Positions 11,301 through 58,635 of a stretch of DNA of 64,000 bases are shown here, piece by piece. The stretch covers positions 80,905,561 to 80,969,560 of the forward strand of contig NC_057718.1 in the NCBI RefSeq assembly GCF_004010195.1, read 5' to 3'. The notes beneath the pieces were generated by a model. It did not search any database. It was not told where the DNA came from and saw only the letters and a program-made list of their open reading frames with translations. Source of the DNA: Chiloscyllium plagiosum (lineage: Eukaryota). How positions within the stretch are numbered: position 1 is the stretch's first letter; each line of letters opens with the position of its first letter. Both the position numbers and the translations under genes were made by a program.

Positions 11301-13419
11301 TTCCTTTGATCCCAGCTGCCTGTACCTTTTTTCTTGTCAAAGTCTTAATATTTCTTAATATTAAGCCTTAATAGGATTCCCTATTCGTGCCAAACTTGCC
11401 CTTCACCCTCACAGGAACATATTGACTTTGAACTCTAGCTATCTCACTTTTAAAGTCCTCTCACTTTCCAGAGGTCCATTTGCCTGCAAACAAACTACTC
11501 CAATCAACCCCTGCAAGCTCCTGTTTAATTCGCCTTACCCCAATTTAGAACTTGAACCTGTTGAACCAGTTTTGTCCCATTCTATAGCTATTTTAAAATT
11601 AATAGAACTATGGTCACAGGTCCCAAAGTGCTTCCTCACTGTCACCTCTGTCACCTGTCCAGCCTATTTTCTAGAGTAGGTTGACTTTTGCATCTTCCCA
11701 AATAGTAGCCTCTATACATTGCTCGACAAAACTTTGCTGAACGCACTTAACAAATTCCACCCCATATAAGCCCTCAATGCTCTGGCAGTCCCAGTCTATG
11801 TTCGGAAACTTAAAATCTCCTACAATGACAAGTCTCCCCAGTCTCCCTGCGTATTTGTTCCTCTAACTCCTGTTGACTATTTGGAGGCCTACAGTACAAC
11901 TCCAATAAAGTCACCATTCCCATCTTATTTTTTAGTTCCACCCACAAAGCCTCACTGGATGATCTTTCAATTATTTCATCTCTGACTACTGCTGTGACAC
12001 TCGCCTTAATCAAAAACGTAACTCCTGCTCCGCTCCTTCCACCACTTCTGTCCCGCCTAAAGTACCTGTACCCTGGTACATCAGCCGTCAGTCCTGTCAC
12101 TCCCTTAGCCATGTTACTGTAATGTCTATAATATCCAAGTCTCACATACCTATCCACGCCATGAGTTCATTGGCCTTACCTGTCAGCCGTCATGCATTGA
12201 GATAAATGCAATTTATTCAATCAGACATTCCTTGCTCCCTGTCATATTCCAGCCTGACCTGTCTCTTCAACTTATTATTTCTGATTACTGTATCTCCTTC
12301 AAACCTCACACTTACCTCCCTGCTGTTGAGTATCCCACCCCCTGCCAATCTAGTTTAAACCCTATTTGCAGCCCTTGCAAACCTGGCCACCAAGATATTA
12401 GTCCCCCCCCAGTTCAGGTGCAACCCATCTCTCTTGACTAGTTCACCTCTGCCCCAGAAAAGACCCCAATGATCTAACAATCTGAATCCCTGTCCCCTGC
12501 ACCAATTTTCTAGCCCCGCATTCATCTGTCATATCCTCATTTTCTTCCCCTCACTAACACATGGTACTGGAAGTAATCGGAGAATATCACCAACAAGGTC
12601 CTGGTTTTTAACTTTGTTCCTAGCTTCTCTTTAATCATTCTGCAGGACCTCATCCCTATTTCTATCTATGTTATTTGTGCCAATGTGCACAATGACTTCT
12701 GGCTGCTCACCCTTCCCCTTGAAAACATTCTGCACCCGCTCAGAGACATCCTATCTGTCCCCCTAACTATCGAGTCTCCTATCACTGGGATCCTGTTTAC
12801 CTTTACCCTCTGTGGCCCAGAGCCAGTACTAATGCCACCAACCTGGCTACTGTTGCTTTCCCCTGAACGGACATCCTCCCCAACAGTGTCCAAAACGGTA
12901 TACTTGTTTTAGAGGGGAATGGCCACAGAGGATTCCTCCACTCTCTGCCTACTCCCTTTGCCTTTCCTGGTGGTCACCCAGTTACTCTCTGCCTGCACCT
13001 TAGGTGTGACCACCTCACTAAAACTGTTTTCTATGAAGTGCTCAGCAGCTCAGATGATCCTGTGTGCATCCAGCTCCCGAACATGGTCTTGCAGGAGCCG
13101 CAGCTGAGTGCACTTCCCACTGTGTACTCTTCAGGGACAATGGAAGTCTCTCTGATACTCCCAGATCTTGCAGGAGAAACATGTGACTGCCCTAACAGTC
13201 ATTTTAACTGCTGTAAAACTAAAAAGGAAAGTTAAAGGGTTTACTTGTACTTTTTGTTGAGCTGCTGCTCGCCAAAGCCCCTCAAGCCAAAGTCTTACTT
13301 CTTACTCTGCTATCAATAAATTTTGCAATATTAAATTTCTCTAGCCCTCCACTTTTTTTTGGTTCAAGGAGCGGGAAGAAGGGAAACAGTACAGTAATGT
13401 AGTGTTTGGGATTTAAGCA

Positions 13420-15477
13420 TTTTTTTAGTTCAAAAATATACTTTATTCATAAAATATTTTGATGATCTGTACAATTGGTCATGCCATACATACGTAGACA
13501 TTCCATTTCTTTGCATACAGAGACAGAGTAATCATTCATGTATACAGGTCTGTACGATTACTATCCACATATGTAGTTGGGGGGTCAGCGGAGCCCCCTT
13601 ACTGCGTTGGCAGGCAGATGTTACACGGTGGCCTTTCCCCACCGCGCCTTGGCAGCAGCTGCCCCAAGCTTCAGCGCGTCCCTCAACACGTAGTCCTGGA
13701 CCTTGGAATGTGCCAGTCTGCAACACTCAGTCAGAGTCAACTCCTTCAGCTGAAAGATCAACAGGTTTCGGACCGCCCAGAGAGTGTCCTTCACTGAGTT
13801 GATGATCCTCCAGGCGCAATTGATGTTCGTCTCGGTGTGCGTCCCGGGGAACAGGCCGTACAGCACGCGTCCCGCGTCACAGCGCTGCTTGGGACGAACC
13901 TCGACAAACACCACTGCATTCCTCTCCAGAATTCCTCTGCATAGGCACATTCCAGAAGGAGGTGTGTGACAGTCTCGTCCCCACTGCAGCCGCTTCGAGG
14001 GCAGCGTGCGGTGCGGCAGAGAGTCCGGGCGTGCATAAAGGATCTCACAGGCAGAGCCCTTCTCACCACCAGCCAAGCCATGTCTTGGTGCTTGTTGGAA
14101 AGTTCTGGCGATGAGGCATTCTGCCAAATGACTTTGACAGTCTGCTCAGGGAACCGCTCGACAGGATCCGCCCTCTCCTTTTCCCGAAGCCGTCTCTGAC
14201 CACTTCCTGATGGACTTGTGGTCAAAGGTGTTTGTCTTCATAAATTTCTCCACAAAGGACAGGTGGTATAGAACGGTCCAACTACTCGGAGCGTTCCGCG
14301 CAGCGAGGCCAGACCCATCCTTTGCAACACCAGGGATAGGTCGAACCTCAGTACGTAGTGACACTTGGTGTTTGTGTACCGGGATCCACGCACAGCTTGA
14401 TGCAGCCACACACAAAGGTGGCCATCAGGGTGAGGGTGGCATTGGGCATGTTTTTCCCCCATTGCCCAGGTCTTTGTTTATTGTGTCCCTTCGGACCTGG
14501 TACATCTTTGATCTCCACATGAAGTGGAAGATGGCCTGGGTGACTCAGCAGCACACGTTCTGGGGATAGGCCAGACCTGTGCCACATATAACAATACTGA
14601 GAGTACCTCACACCTGATGACCAGGTTTTTCCTGGCGATGGAGAGCGACTGTTGCTCCCATCTGCCTAGTTTCTGCCTCATTTTCCTGATCCGCTCCTCC
14701 CAGGTCTTGGCGCACACCCCAGCCCCACCGAACCAAATACCCAGCATCTTCAGGTGGTTGGTCCTGACGGTGAAGTGGATAGAGGATTGGTTGGCCCAGT
14801 TCCTGAAGAGCATGGCTTCGCTCTTGCCTCGGTTTACCTTGGCCCCCGAGGCCAGCTCCAACTGGTCACAGATGCACATGAGTTTGTGCACGGACAGTGG
14901 ATCCGAGCAGAAAACGAAGATGTCATCCAGGGAGGCTTTAACCTGCAGGCCCCCACAGCCAGGAATAGTCACCCCTCTCAGGCTCGCATCCTTCCTGATG
15001 GATTCGGCAAATGGTTCTATGCAGCACACAAACAAGGCAGGACAGAGAGGGCAGCCCTGCCTGACTCCAGATCTTACAGGGAAGCTATCTGTTTCCCACC
15101 CATTGATTGAGACTGCACTGACAATGTTGGTGTAGAACAGTCTAATCCAATTACAGATTCCCTCCCCAAAGTCCATTTTGGAGAGAACATCCCTCATATA
15201 TGTATGTGATATCCTGTCAAAGACTTTCTCCTGGTCCAGGCTGATGAGGCAGGTGTCCATTCCCCCTGTCCTGCACGCAGGCAATCGTATCTCTGAGGAG
15301 TGCAAGACTCTCAGGGATCTTCCTGCCCAGTACAGCACAGGTTTGGTCAGGTGGATCACCGGTCCCAGAGCAGACCTGACCCGGTTGGTGATGACCTTTG
15401 ACAAGATTTTGTAGTCTGTGTTTAACAGTGAGATTGGTCTCCAATTTCTAATTTCCTCCCTCTTCCCCCATCTGGGA
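13420..15477 (-). mobile_element. 5'-truncated Tx1-like (L1 group) non-LTR retrotransposon: RT + C-terminal zinc finger, frameshifted
   Basis: NWRPISLLNTDYKILSKVI, SLDQEKVFDRISH, SGVRQGCPL, CPRSGCSGDETVTHLLLEC; GC-rich; AATAAA plus A-tail at 13420-13447; 14-bp TSD TTGGGATTTAAGCA. Confidence 0.88.
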
Positions 15478-15491
15478 TTGGGATTTAAGCA

Positions 15492-15871
15492 TTTTTTAAA
15501 TTCCAAAAATATACTTTATTCATAAAATATTTTGATGATCTGTACAATTGGACATGCCATACATATGTAAACATTCAATTTCTTCGCATACCGAAACAGA
15601 GTAATCATTCATATTTACAGGTCTGTACGATTACATTTTTAGCTGATGCGTCAGCAGAGCCCAAATGACTGCGTGGGCCCCCTGTTCTTCTTAGGCAGGC
15701 AGTTGTTACACGGTCGTCTTTCCCCACCGCACCTTGGCGGCAGCTGCCCCAACCTTTAGCGCATCCCTCAACACGTAGTCCTGGACCTAGGAATGTGCCA
15801 GTCTGCAACACTCAGTCAGGGCCAACTCCTTCAGCTGGAAGATCAACAGGTTTCGGACCGCCCAGAGAAGC
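15492..15871 (-). mobile_element. Second, short Tx1-like 3' fragment in tandem
   Basis: Homologous to 13420-13780 but with many substitutions and indels; flanked by GGATTGGGATTTAAGCA at 15475-15491 and 15872-15888. Confidence 0.88.
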
Positions 15872-17007: not shown

Positions 17008-19055
17008 AGTCATAGAGTCATAGAGATGTACAGCATAAAAACAAACCCTTTGGTCCAACCTGTCCATGCAAACCAGATATCCCAACCCAATCTAGTCCCA
17101 CCTGCCAGCACCTGGCCCATATCCCTCCAAACCCGTCCTATTCATATACCCATCCAAATGCCTCTTAAATGTTGCAATTGTACCAGCCTCCACCACTTCC
17201 TCNNNNNNNNNNNNNNNNNNNNNNNNNNNNNNNNNNNNNNNNNNNNNNNNNNNNNNNNNNNNNNNNNNNNNNNNNNNNNNNNNNNNNNNNNNNNNNNNNN
17301 NNNNNNNNNNNNNNNNNNNNNNNNNNNNNNNNNNNNNNNNNNNNNNNNNNNNNNNNNNNNNNNNNNNNNNNNNNNNNNNNNNNNNNNNNNNNNNNNNNNN
17401 NNNNNNNNNNNNNNNNNNNNNNNNNNNNNNNNNNNNNNNNNNNNNNNNNNNNNNNNNNNNNNNNNNNNNNNNNNNNNNNNNNNNNNNNNNNNNNNNNNNN
17501 NNNNNNNNNNNNNNNNNNNNNNNNNNNNNNNNNNNNNNNNNNNNNNNNNNNNNNNNNNNNNNNNNNNNNNNGACCTTACCATTAAGTGTATAAGTCCTGC
17601 TAAGATTTGCTTTCCCAAAATGCAGCACCTCACATTTATCTGAATTAAACTCCATCTGCCACTTCTCAGCCCATTGGCCCATCTGGTCAAGATCCTGTTG
17701 TAATCTGAGGTAACCTTCTTCGCTGTCCACTACACCTCCAATATTGGTGTCATCTACAAACTTACTAACTATACCTCTTATGCTCGCATCCAAATCATTT
17801 ATGTAAATGACGAAAAGTCGTGGACTCAGCACCAATCCTTGTGGCACTCCACTGGTCAAAGGCCTCCAGTCTGCAAAACATCCTCCACGATCATCCTCTG
17901 TCTTCTAGCTTTGAGCCTGTTCTGTATCCAAATGGCTAGTTCTCCCTATATTCCGTGAGATCTAACCTTGCTAACCAGTCTCCCATGGGGAACCTTGTCG
18001 AACACCATACTGAAGTCCATATAGATCACATCTACCACTCTGCCCTCATCAATCGTCTTGGTTACTTCTTCAAAAAACTCAATCACGTTTGTGAAACACG
18101 ATTTCTTATGCACAAAGCCATGTTGACTATCCATAATCAGTCCGTGCCTTTCCAATACATACACATCATGTCCCTCAGAATTCCCTCCAACAACTTGCCC
18201 ACCACTGATGTCAGGTTCACTGGTCTATAGTTTCCTGGCTTGTCCTTACCACCCTTCTTAAACAGTGTCACCACGTTAGCCAACCTCTAGTCTTCCAGCA
18301 CCTCACCTGTGACTATCAATGATAGAAATATCTCAGCAAGACGCTCAGCAATCACTTTTCTAGCTTCCCACAGAGTTCTTGGGTACACCTGATCAGGTCC
18401 TGGGGATTTATCCAACTTTATGCATTTCAAGACATCCAGCACTTCCTCCTCTGTAATATGGACATTTTGCAAGATGTCACCATCTATTTCCCTCCATTCT
18501 ATATCTTCAATGTCCTTTTCCACAGTAAATATTAATGCAAAATACTCGTTTAGTATCTCCCCCATTTTCTGTGGCTCCACACAAAGGCCACCTTGCTGAT
18601 CTTTGAGGGGCCCTATTCTCTCCCTAGTTACCCTTTTGTCCTTAATGTATTTGTAAAAACCCTTTGGATTCTCCTTAATTCTATTTGCCAAAGCTATCTC
18701 ATGTCCCCTTTTTGCCCTCCTGATTTCCCTCTTAAGTATACTCCTACTGCCTTTATACTCTTCTAAGGATTCACTCAATCTATCCTGTCTATACCTTACA
18801 TATGCTTCCTTCTTTTTCTTAACCAAACCCTCAATTTCTTTAGTCAGCCAGCATTCCCTATACCTACCAGCCTTTCCTTTCACCCTAACAGGAGTATACT
18901 TTCACTGGATTCTTGTTATCTCATTTCTGAAGGCTTCCCATTTTCCAGCTGTCCCTTTGCCTGCGAACATCTGCCCCCAATTAGCTTTTGAAAGTTCTTG
19001 CCTAATGCCGTCAAAATTAGCCTTCTCCAATTTAGAACTTCCAACTTTTAGATCT
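17008..19055 (-). mobile_element. 5'-truncated CR1 LINE spanning an assembly gap
   Basis: Tail at 17008; GVPQGLVL..KFVDDTN; SQHGF; KSPGPDQVYPR. Confidence 0.93.
17203..17571. other. Assembly gap (N run)
   Basis: Run of N. Confidence 1.
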
Positions 19056-19989: not shown

Positions 19990-20105
19990 ATAAATTCTGT
20001 GTCCTATGATCCTGCACCATTAGCTGCCTGACAAAGGAGCAGTGCTCCGAAAACTTGGACTTCCAAATAAACCTGTTAGACTGTAACCTGATGTGTGATT
20101 TTTAA
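19990..20105 (+). mobile_element. Decayed PLE terminal-repeat fragment with a degenerate hammerhead motif
   Basis: Aligns by eye to 22734-22855 (ATAAATTCTGTG..GGAGCAGTGCTCCGAAA..TAAACCTGTT..TGTGTGATTTTTAA). Confidence 0.75.
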
Positions 20106-21529
20106 AATTAAACTGCATTTATTTTAATGCAAGTGGCCCAACAGGTAACACAGCTGAACTCGGGCACGGTTGGGAACATGGGACTGGGGTATCATAGCAA
20201 TTACAGAGACGTGGCTCAAGGATGGACAGAACTAGCAGCTTAATGTTTCAGGTTATAGATGCTGTGGGAAGGGTAGAAAGGAAGGGAAAAGTGAAGGGGG
20301 AGTGGCATTTTTGATTAGGGATATCATTCTAGCTATACATAAGGAGGATATTCCTGGGAATACACCCAAGGAAGTTATTTGGGTGCAACGAAGAAATAAG
20401 AAAGGGATGATCAACTTATTGGGATTGTATTATAGACCCTCCCCCCATGCAATAGTCAGCGAGAAATTGAGAAACAAATTTGTAAGGAGGTCGCAGTTAT
20501 CTGTAAGAATAATAGGGTGGTTATGGTAGGGGATTTTAACTTTCCAAATATAGACTGGGATGGCCATAATTTTAAGGACTTGAATGGACAGGAATTTGTT
20601 AAGTGTGTACAAGAAAATTTTCTGATTCACTATGTGGATGTACCTGCTAGAAAAGGTGCAACACTTAACCTACTCTTGGGAAATAAGGCAGGGGAGGTGA
20701 CTGAGGTGTCAGTAGGGGAGTACCTGTACTGGGATCAGTGACCATAATTCTATTAGATTTAAAGTAATGATGGAAAAGGACAGACCGGATCTAAAAGTTG
20801 AAGTTCTAAATTGGAGCAAGGCCAATTTTGATGGTATGAGGCAAGTAATTTCAAAAGTTGACTGGGGACAAATATTTGCAGCTAAAGAGATGGCTGGAAA
20901 ATGGGGAGACTTCAAATGAGATAATGAGAGTCCAGAGTTGGTATGTTCTTGTTAGGCTAAAAAGGAAGGCTGGTAGGTGTAGGGAATGCTGGATGACTCG
21001 AGAAATTTATGATTCGGAGATGCCGGTATTGGACTGGGGTGTACAAAGTTAAAAGTCACACAACACCAGGTTATAGTCCAACAGGTTTAATTGGAAGCAC
21101 ACTAGCTTTTGGAGCGACGCTCCTTCATCAGGTGATTGTGGAGGGCTCGATCGTAACACAGAATTTATAGCAAAAATTTGCAGTGTGATGTAACTGAAAT
21201 TATACATTGAAGAATTGATTGTCTGTTCAGCCTTTCATCTGTTAGAATACAGTGATAGTTTCACTTCTTTCATGTGTAAATCACAAAACCCTTTTTTTAA
21301 AAGTTGCACTCTCGGGTGAGCTGTTAACAATGGTGATAGCTAGACAATGTGTTGAAAGTGTCTATCTCTATGACCTGATGTTTAGATTGATTCCAAACTA
21401 AAAAGTGAAATAACAGACTTTTACATAAATTCATGCAGTTTTTGAGCTCTGAGCTCGACATGAATCTATGTGGTTTTTGAGCAAAGTGCAATGTAACTTT
21501 GTACCAAAAGAATTGTCTGTCTGGGGTGG

Positions 21530-22314
21530 NNNNNNNNNNNNNNNNNNNNNNNNNNNNNNNNNNNNNNNNNNNNNNNNNNNNNNNNNNNNNNNNNNNNNNN
21601 NNNNNNNNNNNNNNNNNNNNNNNNNNNNNNNNNNNNNNNNNNNNNNNNNNNNNNNNNNNNNNNNNNNNNNNNNNNNNNNNNNNNNNNNNNNNNNNNNNNN
21701 NNNNNNNNNNNNNNNNNNNNNNNNNNNNNNNNNNNNNNNNNNNNNNNNNNNNNNNNNNNNNNNNNNNNNNNNNNNNNNNNNNNNNNNNNNNNNNNNNNNN
21801 NNNNNNNNNNNNNNNNNNNNNNNNNNNNNNNNNNNNNNNNNNNNNNNNNNNNNNNNNNNNNNNNNNNNNNNNNNNNNNNNNNNNNNNNNNNNNNNNNNNN
21901 NNNNNNNNNNNNNNNNNNNNNNNNNNNNNNNNNNNNNNNNNNNNNNNNNNNNNNNNNNNNNNNNNNNNNNNNNNNNNNNNNNNNNNNNNNNNNNNNNNNN
22001 NNNNNNNNNNNNNNNNNNNNNNNNNNNNNNNNNNNNNNNNNNNNNNNNNNNNNNNNNNNNNNNNNNNNNNNNNNNNNNNNNNNNNNNNNNNNNNNNNNNN
22101 NNNNNNNNNNNNNNNNNNNNNNNNNNNNNNNNNNNNNNNNNNNNNNNNNNNNNNNNNNNNNNNNNNNNNNNNNNNNNNNNNNNNNNNNNNNNNNNNNNNN
22201 NNNNNNNNNNNNNNNNNNNNNNNNNNNNNNNNNNNNNNNNNNNNNNNNNNNNNNNNNNNNNNNNNNNNNNNNNNNNNNNNNNNNNNNNNNNNNNNNNNNN
22301 NNNNNNNNNNNNNN
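21530..22314. other. Assembly gap (N run)
   Basis: Run of N. Confidence 1.
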
Positions 22315-22767
22315 CAGACACACACACAGACAGACAAAGACCCACATGCACACATATATATTGTGTGTGGTGAATTTTTTTGGTACAAAGTTACATTGCA
22401 CTTTGCTCAAAAACCACATAGATTCATGTTGAACTCTGAGCTCAAAAACTGCAAGAATTTATGTAAAAGTCTGTTATTTCACTTTTTAGATTGGAATCAA
22501 CCTAAACATCAGGCCATAGACAGAGAACACAGGGGGCTAACACCTTCAACACATTGTCTAGCTATCACCATTGTTAACAGCTCACCCGAGAGTGCAACTT
22601 TTAAAAGAAAGGGTTTTGTGATTTACACATGAAAGAAGTGAAACTATCATTGTATTCTAACAGATGAACGGCTTAACAGACAATCAATTCTTCAATGTAT
22701 AATTTCAGTTACATCACACTGCAAATTTTTGCTATAAATTCTGTGTTACGATCGAGCCCTCCACAAT

Positions 22768-22802
22768 CACCTGATGAAGGAGCGTCGCTCCGAAAGCTAG
22801 TG
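22768..22802 (+). ncRNA. Minimal type I hammerhead ribozyme motif (PLE-associated)
   Basis: CAC-CTGATGA-A-GGAGC(GTC)GCTCC-GAA-AGCT-A-GTG: intact core boxes, 5-bp stem II, palindromic AGCT stem III, CAC/GTG stem I. Confidence 0.72.
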
Positions 22803-25458
22803 TGCTTCCAATTAAACCTGTTGGACTATAACCTGGTGTTGTGTGATTTTTAACTTCGAGAAATTTAGGTTTTCATCAAGAAAAAGGAGGAAGCATACAT
22901 CAGGTACAGACAGCAGAGATCAAGTGAATCTTTAGAAGAGTATAAAGGCAGTTGGAATATACTTAAGAAGAAAATCAGGAGGGCAAAAAAAGGACATGAG
23001 ATAGCTTTGGCAAATAGGAGAATCCAGGAATTTTACAAATACATTAAGGACAAATGGGTAACAAAAGGGAGAATAGGACCTGTTAAAGATCAGCAAAGAC
23101 ACCTATGTATAAAACCACAGGAGGTGGGGGAGATACGAAATGAGTATTTTGCATCAGTGTTACCATGAAGAAGGATGTGGAAGAGATAGAATGTGGGGAA
23201 ATAAATAGTGACATCTTGGAAATGTCCATATTACAGAAGAGATGGTACTGGACAGCTTAGAACACATAAAGGTGGAGTCACAACTAAATAGGATAGTGAA
23301 GAAGATGTTTGGTATGCTTGCCTTAATTGGTCAGTGCATTGAATACAGGAGTTGGAAGGCCATTTTGCATTGTACAGGATATAGTTAGGCCACTTTTGGA
23401 ATACTGCATGCAATTCTGATCACCCCTGCAATAGGAAGGATTTTGTGAAACCTGAAAGGGCTCAGAAAAGATTTACAGACATGTTGCTGGGGATGGAGGA
23501 TTTGGGCTATAGAGAGAGGCTGAATAGGCTGGGTCTGTTTTCCCTGGAGCATTGGAAGCTGAGGGGTGACCTTATAGAATTTTATAAAATCATGGAGGGC
23601 ATGGACACAGTAAATAGACAAGGTCTTTTCCACAGGATAGCAGAGTCTAAAACTGGAGGACATAGTTTTAACGTGATGGGGAAAGATTTAAAAGGGATCT
23701 GAGGGACAATTTTTTTTTATGCAGAGAGTGATGCATGTATGGAATGAGCTGTCATCTACCAGTGAAGGAGGCTGGTATGATTATCACATTTAAAAGCATC
23801 TGGATGGGTTCATGAATAGGAAGGACTTGGGGGGATGTTGGCCAAATGCTAGCAAATAGGACTAGATTAATTTAAGATGTCTGATTGGCATGGATGAGTT
23901 GGTCCGAAGGGTCTGTTTCATCCCTATGACTATACGGGGACCAAAACTGCTTACAGTACTTCAGCTGTGGTCTCACCAACACCTTGTACAGATGCAGTAA
24001 GAATTCCCTACCCTTGTACTCCAACTCTCTTTAAATAAGAGCCAACATTTAATTAGCCTTCCTTATTACTTGTTGTATTTGTGTGCTAGCTTTCTGTACT
24101 TCATGTACAAGTGTCCCCAAGTCCTTTTGTGTTGCTGCTTTCTGCAGATTTTCCCCATTTAAATAATACTGCTGTTTTGTTCTTCTTTCCAAAATGAACA
24201 ATGTCAGAAATCCCACATTATACTCCATTTGCCAACTTTTTGTCCACATACTTAACCAATCAATACCTTTATGAAAACCTTTTCTTACTCCCTCTTACAA
24301 CCAGCTTTTCCACCAACAAACTAATACATATTGTAAATAATAGCAGTTCCAGCACTGATCCTTGTGGAAACCCACTGGTCATAGTTCACCAACCTGAAAA
24401 AGAACCCTCTGTCCTCGAACCAATTCTCCATCCATGCCAACATATCACCTCCAACACTGTGGGCTCTTTTGACTTAAACTTTTGTGAGGTACTTTGCAAA
24501 GTCCAAATTAAGGACATCTACTAGTTTCCCTCTGTTCACTCTGCTTAAGACTTCCTTAAAAAAACTTTAATTTCGTCAGACATGAATTCCCTTTCATGAT
24601 GCCATGGTGACTCTACTTGATTAGATAATGATTTTCCAAATGTACTGCTATTACTCCCTTGATAGTTTATTCTAATAGCTTTCCAACAATAGATTTAGGC
24701 TAATTGGTGTTTAGTTGCCTTTTTTTTGCCTCCTTCCATTTTTAAATAGGGGTGTCATATTAACAGCTTTCTAATCCTCTGGTACGACTCCAGATTCCAA
24801 TCATTCTTGCAATATTACAACTTAATGTATCCATTTTATTTCTATAGCTACTTCTTTTAGGATCCAAGGATGTAAGTCATCAGGGCCAGGGGACTTACCT
24901 GCTTTTAGCCCCATTAGTTTGTCTAATACTACTTCTCCAGCAATGGTTATTGTACTAAATTCTTCTCTAATATTTAGTATTAATGGGATGTTCATAGCAT
25001 CTTCCACCACAAAGGATGATGCAAAATATCTGTTTAACTCTGCAATTTCTTTGTCTCCCCTAAACCTTCTGCCAAATATTTTTCTAAGGGGCTATGTTCA
25101 CTTTGACCTCTCTCTTCCTTTTTGGATTTTTAAGGAATCTCTTATTGTCAGTTTATATATTCCTCACTAGTTTGCTCTTGTAGTTTAGTTTTTCTGTCTT
25201 TATTTTCTCTTTAATCCTCCCTTGCTAGATTCTGAATTTATTCATGTTCAGGCCTATCATTAACATTGTTTTTATGCTATTCCTTTCAACTAAATACCCT
25301 CCTTAACTTCCTTGGTTAGCTATAATTGGTTTATCCTTAGAATCTTTCTGCCTAACTGCGATGATTTGTTTACTAAACTATAAATCATGAATTACCTCCT
25401 TAAACATTTGCCACTGTTTGCTTCCTGTCATTCCTGTTGATCTACCTTCCCAAATCAC

Positions 25459-25694
25459 CATGACTTGGAGGTGCTGGTGTTGGACTGGGGTCGACAAAGG
25501 TTAAAAATCACACAACACCAGGTTATAGTCCAATAGGTATATTTGGAAGCACTAGTTTTTGGAGCACCGCTCCTTCTTCGGGTGGGTTGTGGAGAATTCT
25601 CCACAACCACCTGAAGAAGAAGCAGTGCTCCGAAAGCTACTGCTTCCAAATAAATCTATTGGACTATAACCTGGTATTATGTGATTTTTAACTT
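25459..25694 (-). mobile_element. Miniature fold-back PLE derivative of the same family as 21010-22855
   Basis: ~95-bp arms meeting at GTGGAGAATTCTCCAC; ~39-nt tail at the left; TSD TTCC(C/T)AAATCAC at 25447-25458 and 25695-25706. Confidence 0.8.
25608..25640 (+). ncRNA. Minimal hammerhead motif, slightly degenerate
   Basis: CAC-CTGAAGA-A-GAAGC(AGT)GCTCC-GAAAGCTA; one stem II mismatch. Confidence 0.5.
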
Positions 25695-26230
25695 TTCCTA
25701 AATCACTTTAGCTAACTCTATCCTGATTTCATTGTAATTCCCTTTTAGTTAAACACAGTTGTTTTTTGATTTAAGTTTCTCCCTTTTGAACAGAATATTA
25801 AATTTTATCAAGTTATGATCATGACTTCCGAGGGAATCTTTTACTCAGAGGTAATTTATTAACCCTGCCACATTGCCCGCCTCCAACCTCATAGTCCCAC
25901 AACCCCGCACCGCCCGTTTCTACCTCCTGCCCAAAATCCACAAACCTGACTGCCCCGGCCGACCCATTGTCTCCGCCTGCTCCTGCCCCACCAAACTCAT
26001 CTCCGCATACCTCGACACGATCCTGTCTTCCTTAGTCCAAGAACTCCCCACCTATGTTCGGGACACCACCCATGCCCTCCACCTCCTCCATGATTTCACT
26101 TCCCCGGTCCCCAATGCCTTATCTTCACCATGGACATCCAGTCCCTGTACACCTCCATCCCATCACAAAGGCCTCAAAGCCCTCCGCTTCTTCCTTTCCC
26201 GCCGTACCACCCAGTACCCTTCCACCGACA

Positions 26231-27337
26231 CCCTCCTTCGACTGACCGAACTGGTCCTCACCCTGAAACCCTCCTTCGACTGACCGAACTGGTCCTCACC
26301 CTGAAACCCTCCTTCGACTGACCGAACTGGTCCTCACCCTGAAACCCTCCTTCGACTGACCGAACTGGTCCTCACCCTGAAACCCTCCTTCGACTGACCG
26401 AACTGGTCCTCACCCTGAAACCCTCCTTCGACTGACCGAACTGGTCCTCACCCTGAAACCCTCCTTCGACTGACCGAACTGGTCCTCACCCTGAAACCCT
26501 CCTTCGACTGACCGAACTGGTCCTCACCCTGAAACCCTCCTTCGACTGACCGAACTGGTCCTCACCCTGAAACCCTCCTTCGACTGACCGAACTGGTCCT
26601 CACCCTGAAACCCTCCTTCGACTGACCGAACTGGTCCTCACCCTGAAACCCTCCTTCGACTGACCGAACTGGTCCTCACCCTGAAACCCTCCTTCGACTG
26701 ACCGAACTGGTCCTCACCCTGAAACCCTCCTTCGACTGACCGAACTGGTCCTCACCCTGAAACCCTCCTTCGACTGACCGAACTGGTCCTCACCCTGAAA
26801 CCCTCCTTCGACTGACCGAACTGGTCCTCACCCTGAAACCCTCCTTCGACTGACCGAACTGGTCCTCACCCTGAAACCCTCCTTCGACTGACCGAACTGG
26901 TCCTCACCCTGAAACCCTCCTTCGACTGACCGAACTGGTCCTCACCCTGAAACCCTCCTTCGACTGACCGAACTGGTCCTCACCCTGAAACCCTCCTTCG
27001 ACTGACCGAACTGGTCCTCACCCTGAAACCCTCCTTCGACTGACCGAACTGGTCCTCACCCTGAAACCCTCCTTCGACTGACCGAACTGGTCCTCACCCT
27101 GAAACCCTCCTTCGACTGACCGAACTGGTCCTCACCCTGAAACCCTCCTTCGACTGACCGAACTGGTCCTCACCCTGAAACCCTCCTTCGACTGACCGAA
27201 CTGGTCCTCACCCTGAAACCCTCCTTCGACTGACCGAACTGGTCCTCACCCTGAAACCCTCCTTCGACTGACCGAACTGGTCCTCACCCTGAAACCCTCC
27301 TTCGACTGACCGAACTGGTCCTCACCCTGAAACCCTC
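26231..27337 (+). repeat. Perfect tandem array, 29 copies of a 38-bp unit plus 5 bp
   Basis: Unit CCCTCCTTCGACTGACCGAACTGGTCCTCACCCTGAAA; (27333-26231)/38 = 29; no variant units seen. Confidence 0.97.
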
Positions 27338-27433
27338 ACCTTGACCTTTTTCCACCTATCGCATTTCCGACACCCCTCCCCCAAGTCCCTCCTCCCTACC
27401 TTTTATCTTAGCCTGCTGGACAAACTTTCCTCA

Positions 27434-27468
27434 TTCCTGAAGAAGGGCTTATGCCTGAAACGTCGATT
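27434..27468 (+). ncRNA. Minimal hammerhead motif in the PLE 3' repeat
   Basis: CTGAAGA-A-GGGC(TTAT)GCCT-GAA-ACGT-C: core boxes, 4-bp stem II with one G-U pair, palindromic ACGT, GUC cleavage triplet; stem I is weak. Confidence 0.62.
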
Positions 27469-28499
27469 CTCCTGTTCCCTGGATGCTGCCTGACCTGCTG
27501 CGCTTTTCCAGCAACACATTTTCAGCTCTGATCTCCAGCATCTGCAGACCTCACTTTCTCCTGCCCATTTCAGATCTAAAGTAACTCACTCCTTCATTGG
27601 CCGCATGACAAGTTGTTCTTGGAAATGATCCCTAATCAATTCTATGAATTCACTGCCTTAGCTCCCTTTCCAATTTGATTAACCCAATCAAAATGAAGAT
27701 TAAAGTCATTTATAATTATTGCTCAATCATTTTTACATTCTGTTGTTATCTGTTGGATTATAGCCTTTCTGACATAGTGGCTGTTTTGGGATTTGTACAT
27801 TATTCTGACCAATGTCTTCTTTCTCTTGTTGTTTTGTTCTACTTCTGCCCAAATAGAGCCCAATCTTCTGATTTTCGCTCACAACTGTGCTCATTTCATT
27901 TCCTATTAACAGTGCACCCTCCCAACCTTTTACATCCCTCCTATCTCTCTGAAAAGTCAATATCCTTGAATGTTACATTCCCAATTTTGATCTGGTTTCT
28001 GTAAGGGTTATAAGATCATTTTCATTTACCTCAATTTATGTGGTTTATGCAAATACAGAATTGAATGTGATACTATTATGTCAGTACACTCACTGGCGTT
28101 CTACATTCTTTACTGTCAAACACTTCAATGGATTTACTGGTTTCTACCATTACTAATAAGTATGTCTACTATTGCAGAAAAATGCATTGGAACCTGTGAA
28201 TAACCAACAGGTCTTTCATTATTATAATTTGTGGCGAGTTGTTAAGTGCCTTAAAAATTTGTAATGAAGAAGAAAATTTCATTATAATTGCTATTCCAAT
28301 TGAGCATTATCAAATAAAATCAGTTTATATTTAAAAGAAAATGAGATTAAAATTGTTAAGCTAGGCATTCTAAATATAGTATGATAAAAAAGTACACAAA
28401 TTATATGTTTAGTGATACTAAATTGCATAAATATATACATTCTTGTCTCTACAAAGATACATTTTTAGATTTACTGTACATGTCAGGACATGATAGAAT

Positions 28500-31929: not shown

Positions 31930-32669
31930 AATGCTGAAGCGCCGCCGTGCTCTGCCTTACAACCCATCTCTTAAACCGTTCAGGCAACACGCATGCGCAG
32001 AATCTCGCCACTACACATCCCCCTTCTCACGCAATCACGCAACAAACCTTTATCTGCTTGGCACGCAAGCCGTGAGAGCGGCTGCGCAAAGTCCCAGCTT
32101 CCCCCACAACCTCCACCCGGAAGATGCTGCTGATGGGGATGTGCGCGAAGGTGACGGGCCTCTCATACCAACTCTCCCGCGTGCGTCTCTCTCTCTTTAT
32201 ACCCGTGCGCGTGCTATCTCCGCCGTCCGTGGGTCTCGAGCACGCAAAGGGGCGGGGAGGTTAGTTCGCTCGCGCAAGCGCGGATCACATGATAGTTGGT
32301 TTTTTTCCTCTCTGGAGGCTGTGACGGTGTCTGAGGGTTGAGAGCTCGAGCAGGATCAGGAGGGGAAAAAAAATCCACATAAGAGCCGTTAGTGTGAGAG
32401 CTGCTGCGTGTTAGTGTGGAGGGATCGCACTGCGTAGCAGAGATAAACTCTCACCACTCACATACAGGAGTTAAAAGAAAGGACCCTCCCCCGCGGGCAG
32501 CTTCCAGTAAAAGGACAAAAAAACCCTAAAAAGAGACGACACAACAAGAAAAAAAGGACAAGGTTTGGGACCGAGATAGAGAGACTCTTCGAACGCCGGA
32601 ACTTTTACAGCTTTTTCGTGTGTGCGTGTTATTGGGAGGAGGGGGGGGGGAAAGTATTTTTTTTGGAAT
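31930..32669 (+). promoter_or_regulatory. CpG-island promoter and 5' UTR of QKI
   Basis: Dense CpG; GC box GGGGCGGGG at 32249-32257; NRF1-like CGCATGCGCA at 31990-31999; directly upstream of the QKI ATG; TSS not determinable. Confidence 0.8.
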
Positions 32670-32811
32670 ATGGTAGGGGAAATGGAAAATAAGGAACGAC
32701 CAAAACCTACCCCAGACTATCTCATGCAACTGATGAACGACAAGAAGCTGATGAGTAGCCTGCCTAACTTCTGCGGCATTTTCAATCATTTGGAAAGGTT
32801 ACTGGATGAAG
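32670..32811 (+). CDS. QKI: Protein quaking (STAR family KH RNA-binding protein), coding exon 1 (QUA1 dimerisation domain)
   Basis: [47 protein letters not shown] is nearly identical to the vertebrate QKI N-terminus; 142 coding nt end at the phase-1 donor AAG|GTATGT. Confidence 0.97.
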
Positions 32812-42849: not shown

Positions 42850-44200
42850 GGCTGAAATATCTGGAGTGCTGGTGGATGATCAGTCTTCGCCTTGTCCCAT
42901 TCAATGAGAAGAAACTGCTGAAAGCACTGGATACTGCAAAGGCTGCGGGCCATGACAACCTGGCAATAGTACTGAAGACATGCGGAATTTACCAAGCTGT
43001 TTCGGTACAGCAATAGCCTACTGAACTATACCTGACAATGTGGAAAATTGTCAGGTATGTCCATTAGGTGAAAGTGAGGACTGCAGATGCTGTAGATCTG
43101 AGTCGAAAGTGTGCTGCTGGAAAAGCACAGCAGGTCAGGCAACATCCGAGGAGCAGGGAAATTGACTTCTCGGGCAAAAGCCCTTCATCAGGTATGTCCA
43201 ATAGGCTTGATGCAGGACAAATTCAACCTGATTACTGATGAACAATAGAGACTTTACTGAGACAGTAAAGTAATGTAGGGGCCATCAACAGTACTATTGA
43301 GTATCCTGGCTTAGCTATAACTCATTCACTGATGCTTAGTTGGGATTCTGCCAGTACCACTCAGCAGCTGACCTCATTTCAGCCTTTGTTCAAACATAGG
43401 CAAAACAGTTGGACTCCAGAGATGAATTGATAGGGCGGTCTTTGTCAAGATCAAGTTTGATTCAGTATGGCATTAAGAGCCCTAGTGAAACTAATCATTT
43501 TGAATCTGGGCGGAATCGGGGAAGAGCCTGCCTAATGCAAAACAAGGAATATGGTTGTGGTTGATGGAAGCTGATCATCCTGGCACCAAGGCATCTCTGC
43601 AGGGCTTCTATAGGGTCATATCCTAAGCCTAACCATCTTCATATGCTTAATGAATGATCTTTCCTCAGAATTAGGTCAGAAGTGGCAATGTTTGTTTGCG
43701 CAATGTTGAGAACCACTGCAACTCATATACTGAAGCAGTCCATGGTCAAATGCAGTAAGACCTGGACAAAATATCAAGGCATGAGTTGACAATTGGCAAG
43801 TAAAATTCATACTCCACAACTACCAGACTGTACCCATCTCCAACAAGAGAGCTCATGCAACAATGTCACATTCAGTGACATTACCAATTCTCTGAATCCT
43901 CCACTGTCCACATCCTCGAGACTACTGTTGACCAGAAACAACTGGACTAGTCACTCAAATACCATGTCGACAGGACCAGGTCAGAGACCAGGAATCCTGC
44001 AGAAAGGAGCTCTCCTCCTGACTCTCTGAAACCTGCTTAACACTTACAAGGCACATGTTAGGAGTTTGCTGGAATGCCCCCCACTTGCCTGGATGAATGC
44101 AGCTCCAGTATCACTAAAGAAGCCTGACTCCATCCAGGACAGTGCAGCATGCTTGATATTAGCACCACATTCTCAAGCATTCATTTCTACCAAAACCAAG
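42850..44200 (+). mobile_element. Ancient non-LTR LINE RT remnant (CR1/L2/Jockey group, family uncertain)
   Basis: KKLLKALDTAKAAGHDNLAIVLKTC followed by decayed RT-like sequence; appears to continue at ~44750-45110. Confidence 0.6.
43069..43192 (-). mobile_element. Short PLE-derived 3'-end insertion beginning at the hammerhead core
   Basis: Minus strand CCTGATGAAGGGCTTTTGCCCGAGAAGTC..GCATCTGCAGTCCTCACTTTC is homologous to 27436-27560; 18-bp TSD TCAGGTATGTCCA(T/A)TAGG at 43051-43068 and 43188-43205. Confidence 0.82.
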
Positions 44201-58090: not shown

Positions 58091-58446
58091 TTGATCACTT
58101 ATTTAGGATGTTAGACCATCACGCCGTTATGCCCTTTTGATTATATTTGTAATTGGCAGTATTAAGATTTAAAAAACATCACTGTCCTATTACAAATAGT
58201 GACTTAAGTGAACCACACAGTAAGTTTGAGATGCTTTTTAATGTTTGTGTGAAACGTTTGCAACAAAAACTTCCAGCTCGGCGAACAGAACCACAACATG
58301 CTTTTTAATTTTTTCATTGTGTAGTATATGCAAATTTTTGTTAAAATACTGCATTAATAAAATAGTCAGTTTGTAGACTACGTGATATATAGACTACAAG
58401 ATATATAGTTATAGGAGCAAATTAGTCCAGATACAGGAATCTATAC

Positions 58447-58635
58447 TGAAAACAAAAATGCTGGAAGTCACAGCAGTCAGGGAACATCCATGGCGAGAGA
58501 GCAAGTTAACATTTTGAGTCTAGATGACGCTTCATCAGAGCTGCTGACGCTACAGTAATCTAGATGAAACATGAACTTGCTCTCTCTCCACAGATGCTGT
58601 TTGACTGCAATGATTTCCAGCATTTTTTGTTTTCA
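58447..58635. mobile_element. Decayed fold-back PLE-derived element (third family)
   Basis: TGAAAACAAAAATGCTGGAA..GAGAGAGCAAGTT pairs with AACTTGCTCTCTCTC..TTCCAGCATTTTTTGTTTTCA; minus strand CTGATGAAGCGTC(ATCTA)GACTC-AAAATGTT is a degenerate hammerhead. Confidence 0.65.

Follow-up and report, generated by a model that had tools for sequence, protein, structure and literature searches.

Minimal type I hammerhead motifs in pseudo-LTR ends of endonuclease-bearing Penelope-like elements of Chiloscyllium plagiosum, with predicted cleavage as palindrome-paired dimers

Minimal hammerhead ribozymes (min-HHRs) without helix III or loop 3 were described by Cervera and De la Pena in 2014 (PMC4209133). 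Their recurring traits are a base between positions 9 and 10.1, a G10.1-C11.1 pair and a palindromic 15.2-16.2 pair. Monomers showed no cleavage, dimers and trimers cleaved at a low level in vitro, and motif pairs on opposite strands were found 100-700 bp apart. Fig. S3 of that paper gives the consensus CUGANGAH, with the bare 4-nt form in all 11 vertebrate rows. A review (PMC6765202) reports from Lunse et al. hammerheads of Penelope-like elements (PLEs) that have a very short palindromic stem III and cleave as dimers. For PAc, a Poseidon element of Anolis carolinensis, hammerhead cleavage is protein-dependent but dispensable for insertion in vitro; no RNA-seq ends were found at the cut, and the unprocessed RNA is the main template (Frangieh et al. 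2024, PMC11167929). Type I hammerheads from PLE pseudo-LTRs (pLTRs) are also carried by non-LTR retrozymes, in a study that sampled one chondrichthyan genome (bioRxiv 10.64898/2026.07.22.740005). These and all later statements on cited papers refer to the accessible portions of each source.

The window analyzed here comprises 64,000 nt of Chiloscyllium plagiosum (NC_057718.1, positions 80,905,561-80,969,560, forward strand) from a genome of 3.56 Gb. Both strands were searched with a descriptor consisting of the core box, zero or one extra base, a stem II of at least 4 bp, and GAAA-N-N-T-H with complementary NN. Without mismatches it matched at 22771 and 27437, against a mean of 0.013 matches in 300 dinucleotide shuffles; with one stem mismatch exactly three matches were obtained, 25611 being added (shuffles: mean 0.033, maximum 1, n = 300). 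At these three positions the first-pass annotation had placed a core box followed by one extra base, stem II, GAA, a 4-nt palindrome and H, and the motifs were located there as claimed. All three retain the core boxes CUGANGA and GAAA, U16.1 and H17. A search of the whole window against Rfam, with E-values up to 5, returned no hammerhead and three unrelated weak matches, because the Rfam models miss the min-HHR form.

The motif at 22768-22802 (plus strand) belongs to subfamily A1 of family A and is the sole fully intact copy in the window. It consists of a 3-bp stem I (CAC/GTG), the core box at 22771-22777, an extra A at 22778, stem II at 22779-22783 and 22787-22791, GAA, the palindrome AGCT at 22795-22798, and A17 at 22799, after which the cut is predicted. 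The family B motif (27435-27466, plus strand; subfamily B1, without AWTAAA) has a stem I of just 2 bp, the palindrome ACGT at 27460-27463 and C17 at 27464, with the predicted cut after 27464. Both cuts agree with those proposed earlier. The copy at 25611 (palindrome AGCT) is not intact: its stem II, GAAGC/GCTCC, contains an A.C mismatch, and stem I is broken by the C that directly follows the cut. The earlier view that stem II differs between families while its pairing is kept was borne out as to pairing, but the copy at 25611 represents subfamily A2 of the 22771 family, and the copy at 27437 reads GGGC/GCCT, in which a G.U replaces the G10.1-C11.1 pair of the family form GGGC/GCCC.

The window motifs are the min-HHR form described in 2014, not a new ribozyme class. 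The 4-nt palindrome and the extra base, for which the first-pass annotation had coined an 'ultra-minimal' form, are both part of the published definition (PMC4209133). Shared with that form are the type I topology, CUGANGA-H, G10.1-C11.1, GAAA-N-N-U-H without loop 3, the palindromic 15.2-16.2 pair, a short stem I, the location in pLTRs, the prevalence of solitary or opposite-strand copies and the predicted dimer. Two Nematostella rows and an Acropora row of PMC4209133 resemble family B, and in its turtle row an AGCU palindrome is followed by AAUAAA, as in family A. Stem II has 4-6 bp here, compared with 7-8 bp in Schistosoma (PMC4209133). The motif tables of the supplement contain no shark row ('shark' and 'Callorhinchus' both absent), while other supplements of that paper may list shark families. 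A literature search on hammerheads of shark PLEs returned a single review. The association with PLEs and the short palindromic stem III are likewise common to the window motifs and the variants of Lunse et al., as reviewed in PMC6765202.

The carriers of the motifs were inventoried by BLAST with the natural ends of six families. The 22771 motif lies in a single family A insertion (21010-22855) made up of two inverted arms with an assembly gap between them: a 5'-side arm with a tail (approximately 21010-21530, minus strand) and a direct arm without a tail (approximately 22315-22855, plus strand). The insertion is flanked by a 12-bp target-site duplication (20998-21009 and 22856-22867). The 22771 arm is 97% complementary over 257 nt to the inverted arm 1.3 kb upstream, whose own A1 motif (21100-21134, minus strand, core box from 21131) carries a G12 to A change and is predicted to be dead. 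The 25611 motif is part of a 236-bp fold-back stub (25459-25694) in which two family A2 ends stand head-to-head. One of its arms has a tail, and the stub is flanked by a 12-bp target-site duplication with one mismatch (25447-25458 and 25695-25706). The minus-strand motif of this stub, at approximately 25581, has three core or palindrome changes, and the plus-strand motif at 25611 has its mismatches in stems I and II. The predicted fold of the stub is one long hairpin (-151 kcal/mol, z -19.7). Both units match insertions of endonuclease-bearing (EN+) PLEs in their head-to-head arms, one-sided tail and 12-bp duplication, and no difference from that pattern was found in the accessible portions of PMC8557442 and PMC3846280.

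The 27437 motif ends a 5'-truncated and internally deleted family B element (25855-27561, plus strand), which begins with a reverse transcriptase (RT) fragment at 25855 and has a tail at its 3' end. The fragment is 76% identical to the family B RT of locus L079 (tblastn, E 3e-53), and this 142-aa RT piece was not recognized by Pfam. Where the remaining open reading frame (ORF) is absent, a 38-bp piece of family B RT is repeated about 30 times with 98% identity (26218-27353), and a similar short internal repeat is present in L079; the array is possibly an assembly artefact or the product of template slippage. Non-LTR retrozymes are tandem arrays of hammerhead-bearing units (bioRxiv 10.64898/2026.07.22.740005), and none was found in the window; the 38-bp array was rejected as a candidate, being within RT sequence and without a motif.

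Five decayed copies had also been listed, and all exist: at 20028 (plus strand) and, on the minus strand, at 21131 (with the G12 to A change), approximately 25581, 43191 and 58538. The core boxes, U16.1 or H17 are broken in these five. The copy at 20028 is an old, A3-like family A end (20025-20105) with damaged core box and palindrome and a retained AATAAA at 20066. The family B3 end at 43067-43196 (core box from 43191) has A14 changed to G and a broken palindrome. A head-to-head pair of family C ends occupies 58418-58635; its minus-strand motif, from 58538, has G12 changed to A and a broken palindrome, and its plus-strand partner (58536-58635) is a more decayed mirror copy. This partner and two other stubs had been overlooked: a family F end (58251-58298, plus strand; 98% over 48 nt) truncated at the GAAA box, with the 5' half of the ribozyme absent, and a family B3-like end (16610-16542, minus strand) truncated inside stem II.

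The first coding exon of a STAR-domain gene was identified at 32670-32811 on the plus strand (Pfam STAR_dimer, E 6.5e-16), with a GT donor after the exon; we take the exon to be QKI-like. A GC-rich region is situated nearby, at approximately 32050-32450. The PLE copies at 16-27 kb are upstream of this exon. The copy at 43191, antisense to the gene and behind its exon 1, and those at 58251-58635 are likely inside its long first intron. Many CR1-like repeats are further present in the window. On the minus strand, 13400-15515 contains a reverse transcriptase frame that does not belong to a PLE (RVT_1, E 1.5e-26) and is followed by a cysteine-rich frame; the type is presumably Tx1/L1-like. Assembly gaps, such as those at 21530-22314 and 17170-17575 and in many of the fetched loci, fall between inverted PLE arms and inside ORFs; intact source elements are therefore probably under-assembled.

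The proposed link to PLE pLTRs was confirmed by relatives that encode an RT and a GIY-YIG-type endonuclease, and by full-length family A copies bounded by two motifs. Upstream, copies of the 22771 end continue into a frame whose product carries RT motifs together with a C-x4-C-x2-C linker and the YIG motif of an endonuclease. Among 25 family A loci chosen by protein, L121 and L122 have two direct-repeat motifs 3,282 and 3,438 nt apart, with the RT/endonuclease frame between them and its ATG 92 nt past the upstream cut. The family A protein was recognized as RVT_1 (Pfam, E 8e-8) with no GIY-YIG call; its endonuclease was identified by motifs and by similarity to that of family B (blastp, 30% over 101 aa, E 1e-9). 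For the family B protein, which has the C-x4-C-x2-C linker as well, Pfam returned both RVT_1 (E 2e-7) and GIY-YIG (E 9e-5). The family B motif is located 3' of RT and endonuclease in L079 and other loci. No clean family B copy with two pLTRs was found among 20 loci fetched for long open frames, most of which were runs of N; the two motifs of L077 were rejected as a pLTR pair because they are separate insertions.

Remnants of PLE proteins are present upstream of the motif in four of 30 family C loci (L205, L211, L213 and L216). For family D the one nearby protein match (L276) is downstream of the motif and uninformative, and families E and F yielded one upstream RT (L239). The CX2-5CxxC linker between RT and endonuclease, a mark of Neptune or Nematis according to PMC8557442, was seen in families A and B and in the family C remnants. 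Families A to D appear to have a cysteine linker of the Neptune or Nematis type. An RT is present upstream of the family F motif in L239, and in L217 the endonuclease fragment lacks a cysteine linker; we take both to look Poseidon-like. On that ground the extra base may follow the clade, with U in families E and F and A in the linker-bearing families. The supposedly constant extra A is found in all window copies that retain the base, but most motifs of families E and F have U; over 290 grouped rows of the alignment described below, A was counted 248 times, T 38, C three times and G once. As in PAc, the hammerhead is placed at the pLTR-ORF junction, and two genomic 3' ends that define the tail occur in both PAc and family A, where the alternatives are about 38 nt apart. 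The PAc ORF begins inside stem II, whereas that of family A begins 92 nt after the cut; cleavage of PAc was shown with protein (PMC11167929), whereas here it is a prediction.

Exact patterns were counted genome-wide as 14,923 for family A, 87,506 for family B, 13,204 for E/F, 189 for D and 40 for C, with no match to the reversed control of any. A generic pattern with 13-24 nt between the boxes, which excludes family B, gave 70,046 matches against 1,013 for its reversed control. With family B added, the genome total exceeds 157,000 pattern matches, compared with about 4,000 in the coelacanth and about 9,000 in Xenopus under different descriptors (PMC4209133). In 400 kb of unselected genome the palindromic form occurred 17 times, with 0.25 expected by chance. 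The relaxed descriptor, without the palindrome rule, has 3.85 chance matches per 400 kb, and all 32 relaxed matches in the 400 kb took exactly one extra base although 0-2 were permitted. The motifs might be regarded as chance matches to a short, loose descriptor, and this figure of 3.85 speaks for such a view; the approximately 70- to 90-fold excess, the fixed position in the pLTR and the covariation given below have already refuted it, and its probability is negligible. Within 1.06 Mb, ten pairs of family A motifs were at most 4 kb apart, six head-to-head, three tail-to-tail and one direct. The 49 close pairs of family B comprised 26 head-to-head, ten tail-to-tail (four of them self-overlaps of the pattern) and 13 direct.

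Core-anchored rows from all fetched loci were aligned (319 rows); 290 were grouped, and after two groups of fewer than three rows were dropped, 13 subfamily majorities remained. Stem I, of 2-4 bp with three pair types each at positions 1 and 2, was paired at positions 1-3 in 37 of 39 cells, against 18.2 with shuffled partners; none of 20,000 shuffles reached 37, although this comparison overstates independence since the 13 subfamilies are kin (about six families). The most numerous subfamilies, B1 and B3, have a 2-bp stem I and U.U at position 3. Stem II was paired at positions 1-3 in all 39 cells, and G10.1-C11.1 was G-C in 12 majorities and G.U in one. The 15.2-16.2 pair was kept in 13/13 subfamilies, with a palindrome of AGCT or ACGT (GC in three, CG in ten); departures among the 290 copies were mostly CpG decay (CA 21, TG 14). 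The 11 core letters, H17 and the palindrome were retained in all 13 majorities while the stems turned over. The core served as the search anchor for these majorities, and copies anchored by their flanks gave the same core for families A and B.

Decay of single copies was followed in 1.064 Mb of unselected sequence, in which copies were found by their 3' flank. Use was made of 28 of 49 matches for family A and 80 of 194 for family B; 20 and 110, respectively, were too truncated or diverged upstream, and the rest were affected by N or edges. Against a base-matched background with subfamily-diagnostic and CpG positions removed, no excess conservation of the core was detected in single copies of family A (11 changes, 16.0 expected, 28 copies, p 0.24) or of family B (49 changes, 42.3 expected, 80 copies, p 0.30). 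Stem II changes in family B were above expectation (50 versus 28.4). Core, palindrome and H17 were all intact in 7/28 family A and 29/80 family B copies, the family A count being possibly a few too low because of gap placement. The raw conservation contrast (p 0.03 and 1e-4) was discounted because it arises from subfamily differences in the flank. Non-CpG subfamily-diagnostic changes were found at none of 39 structured positions but at 15 of 103 free ones (Fisher p 0.011, pooled after the fact). The covariation and excess conservation that the first-pass annotation had proposed as a test are thus present between subfamilies and families, but single copies decay neutrally, and selection is therefore taken to have acted on the source elements, leaving the dispersed copies unaffected.

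With high confidence, the motifs are read as minimal type I hammerheads in the pLTR ends of endonuclease-bearing PLEs, predicted to cut only as palindrome-paired dimers and probably with the aid of the element's own protein, while the truncated window copies are likely inactive. The first-pass annotation anticipated that dimerization or a protein would be needed, in agreement with the published model (PMC4209133; PMC11167929). Because 4 nt are too few to close a hairpin, stem III needs a second copy. In the proposed mechanism, two motifs in a full-length or tandem transcript would exchange strands so that each A15.1-N-N-U16.1 palindrome pairs with that of the other; this would form a 4-bp stem III and lead to a cut after position 17. 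Selection would act solely on a small number of source elements. Genomic copies extend beyond the cut and the poly(A) site, from which it follows that the RNA serving as template for DNA would have escaped both cleavage and tailing.

The energies calculated for this arrangement are modest. By nearest-neighbor calculation the duplex gains are small, -4.5 and -3.1 kcal/mol, or -3.9 and -0.3 kcal/mol with one stem I closed. For family A the active dimer is at -18.3 kcal/mol against -32.7 kcal/mol for the best predicted fold, with no further gain from closing stem I. Being a pseudoknot, the two-headed dimer was scored only in part. Cleavage by the window copies is predicted to be unlikely because of the small duplex gain, the better alternative folds, neighbors in the wrong orientation and the hairpin or inverted-arm contexts. 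The traits of canonical monomeric type I hammerheads, an intramolecular stem III and loop I-loop II contacts, are absent. A 3-bp AGC/GCT hairpin behind GAA is possible in A1 and A2, lost in A3 and found in no other family; a monomeric family A fold by way of this hairpin was rejected, as no stem I follows.

Behind the family A motif a polyadenylation signal was recognized at 22811-22855 (plus strand), with ATTAAA at 22811-22816. The poly(A) site is equivalent to 22829 (the next two A's being ambiguous) and is followed by a GT/T-rich stretch; the evidence for it comes from the homologous copy L122. RNA data were taken from X21, a single poly(A) single-cell run of which about 2% was read; it shares its species label with some of the DNA data sets and is presumed to match this genome. 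At the pLTR-ORF junction of L122, 2,501 reads were aligned, mostly of one polarity and read as sense RNA. Of these, 739 end in non-templated poly(A) at one site 30 nt past the predicted cut, 400 after L122:3315 and 339 as C plus an A run after 3312; both classes represent one site (after 3313) in two sequence variants. The site is 13 nt after the AWTAAA hexamer and ahead of the GT/T-rich stretch. In the genome, 43,358 copies run on through this site and none has an A run there; the tail is therefore not templated. Past the site, the genomic copies of family A continue for 27 or about 65 nt before they end.

Among 123 family A copies the hexamer reads ATTAAA in 85 and AATAAA in 25. AWTAAA is missing in B1 and B3 as well as in families C to F, and B2 has it at +49. 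For a family B stretch with B1 and B2 ends, no poly(A) was found among the six loose ends listed for X21. In X21 the read depth stays near 1,000 across the family A cut, and read starts or ends pile up at the predicted cut of neither family A nor family B; cut pieces would, however, escape a poly(A)-primed library. The depth of about 1,000 at the signal drops to 1-8 over the ORF start, and a large part of the tailed RNA therefore probably comes from host or read-through transcripts that end in stubs. A published link between PLE pLTRs and polyadenylation was not found in the literature searched, most subscription papers being outside its coverage. No report of pLTR polyadenylation occurs in the accessible passages of PMC4209133, PMC2377424 and PMC3846280, and the main text of the first, as far as accessible, does not mention polyadenylation. 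In Fig. S3 of PMC4209133, 11 of 56 rows were counted by eye as having AAUAAA or AUUAAA at most about 15 nt from the cut, with no control and in AU-rich flanks.

Several further features of these stretches were recorded. Runs that resemble a branch point with a 3' splice site are present just before the ATG in L122 (3330-3352, TTTAAC-pyrimidine-CAG) and behind the family B motif in the window (27490-27512, CTGAC-pyrimidine-CAG); no splice joint was found among those listed for X21 reads on the family A and B stretches. Four X21 reads and one X1 contig jump back 218 nt, from L122:3464 in the ORF start to 3247 just before the motif, likely reflecting a genomic partial tandem and not a circle joined at the cut. 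At L166:2104, 166 X21 reads pass from the family B end into one AATAAA-containing flank with 0.89 agreement; this is probably one host 3' UTR with a family B stub.

It is unlikely that the motif is kept as a signal for protein binding or folding, in RNP assembly or in placing RT starts, with negligible cleavage in vivo. Such a role would suit the poly(A) RNA that spans the cut without a pile of ends, the lack of any core change at 10% or more of reads among the changes listed, and the weak predicted dimer energetics; it would also suit the normal in vitro insertion of catalytic mutants (PMC11167929) and the success of Naiads without canonical hammerheads (PMC8557442). It accounts poorly for the retention of all 11 core letters, H17 and the palindrome in 13/13 subfamilies though the stems turn over, and the anole element does cleave with its protein, with rescue by C3G/G8C (PMC11167929). 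Still less probable is a domesticated ribozyme, the 22771 copy or its neighbors acting on the host near the STAR-domain gene. An intact motif on the same strand as the exon at 32670-32811 would favor this very improbable reading, but the 22771 copy is 97% complementary to its own inverted arm with a dead motif and lies about 10 kb upstream of the exon within another repeat, copies decay at the background rate, and those behind the exon are broken.

A further proposal, which we hold to be rather doubtful, is that hammerhead and poly(A) signal of family A form one switch, in which protein-licensed cleavage clips off the tail and so exerts feedback on element expression or parts mRNA from template RNA. 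It draws on the 739 of 2,501 reads that end in poly(A) at a single site, on the absence of genomic A runs against 43,358 read-through copies, on a hexamer that alternates only between ATTAAA (85/123) and AATAAA (25/123), and on the by-eye count of AAUAAA/AUUAAA near the cut in 11/56 rows of Fig. S3 (PMC4209133). The hexamer is, however, limited to family A and B2 (at +49) and is missing in B1 and B3 and in families C to F; none of the six loose ends listed for family B has poly(A), and the depth of 1-8 at the ORF start against about 1,000 at the signal makes most of the tailed RNA probably host or read-through. The RNA is from one run with a presumed species match, and the 11/56 count is without control in AU-rich flanks. 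The reading preferred here remains that of pLTR hammerheads predicted to cut as palindrome-paired dimers.

For a test of that dimer model, family A offers practical material in its young full-length sources with two tandem motifs, and the six families provide natural compensatory variants (AGCU versus ACGU). The in vivo role of PLE hammerheads has been called unclear (PMC8557442), and polyadenylation 30 nt downstream of the cut supplies a concrete hypothesis for it. This site also suggests that tens of thousands of dispersed ends are able to terminate transcripts in this genome. If cleavage and polyadenylation do act together in family A, a built-in feedback would explain the purpose of the hammerhead in PLEs, host transcripts could be terminated by the signal in its more than 43,000 dispersed copies, and the same design would underlie the AAUAAA or AUUAAA that follows the cut in 11 of the 56 published motifs, which range from cnidarians to a turtle (PMC4209133).
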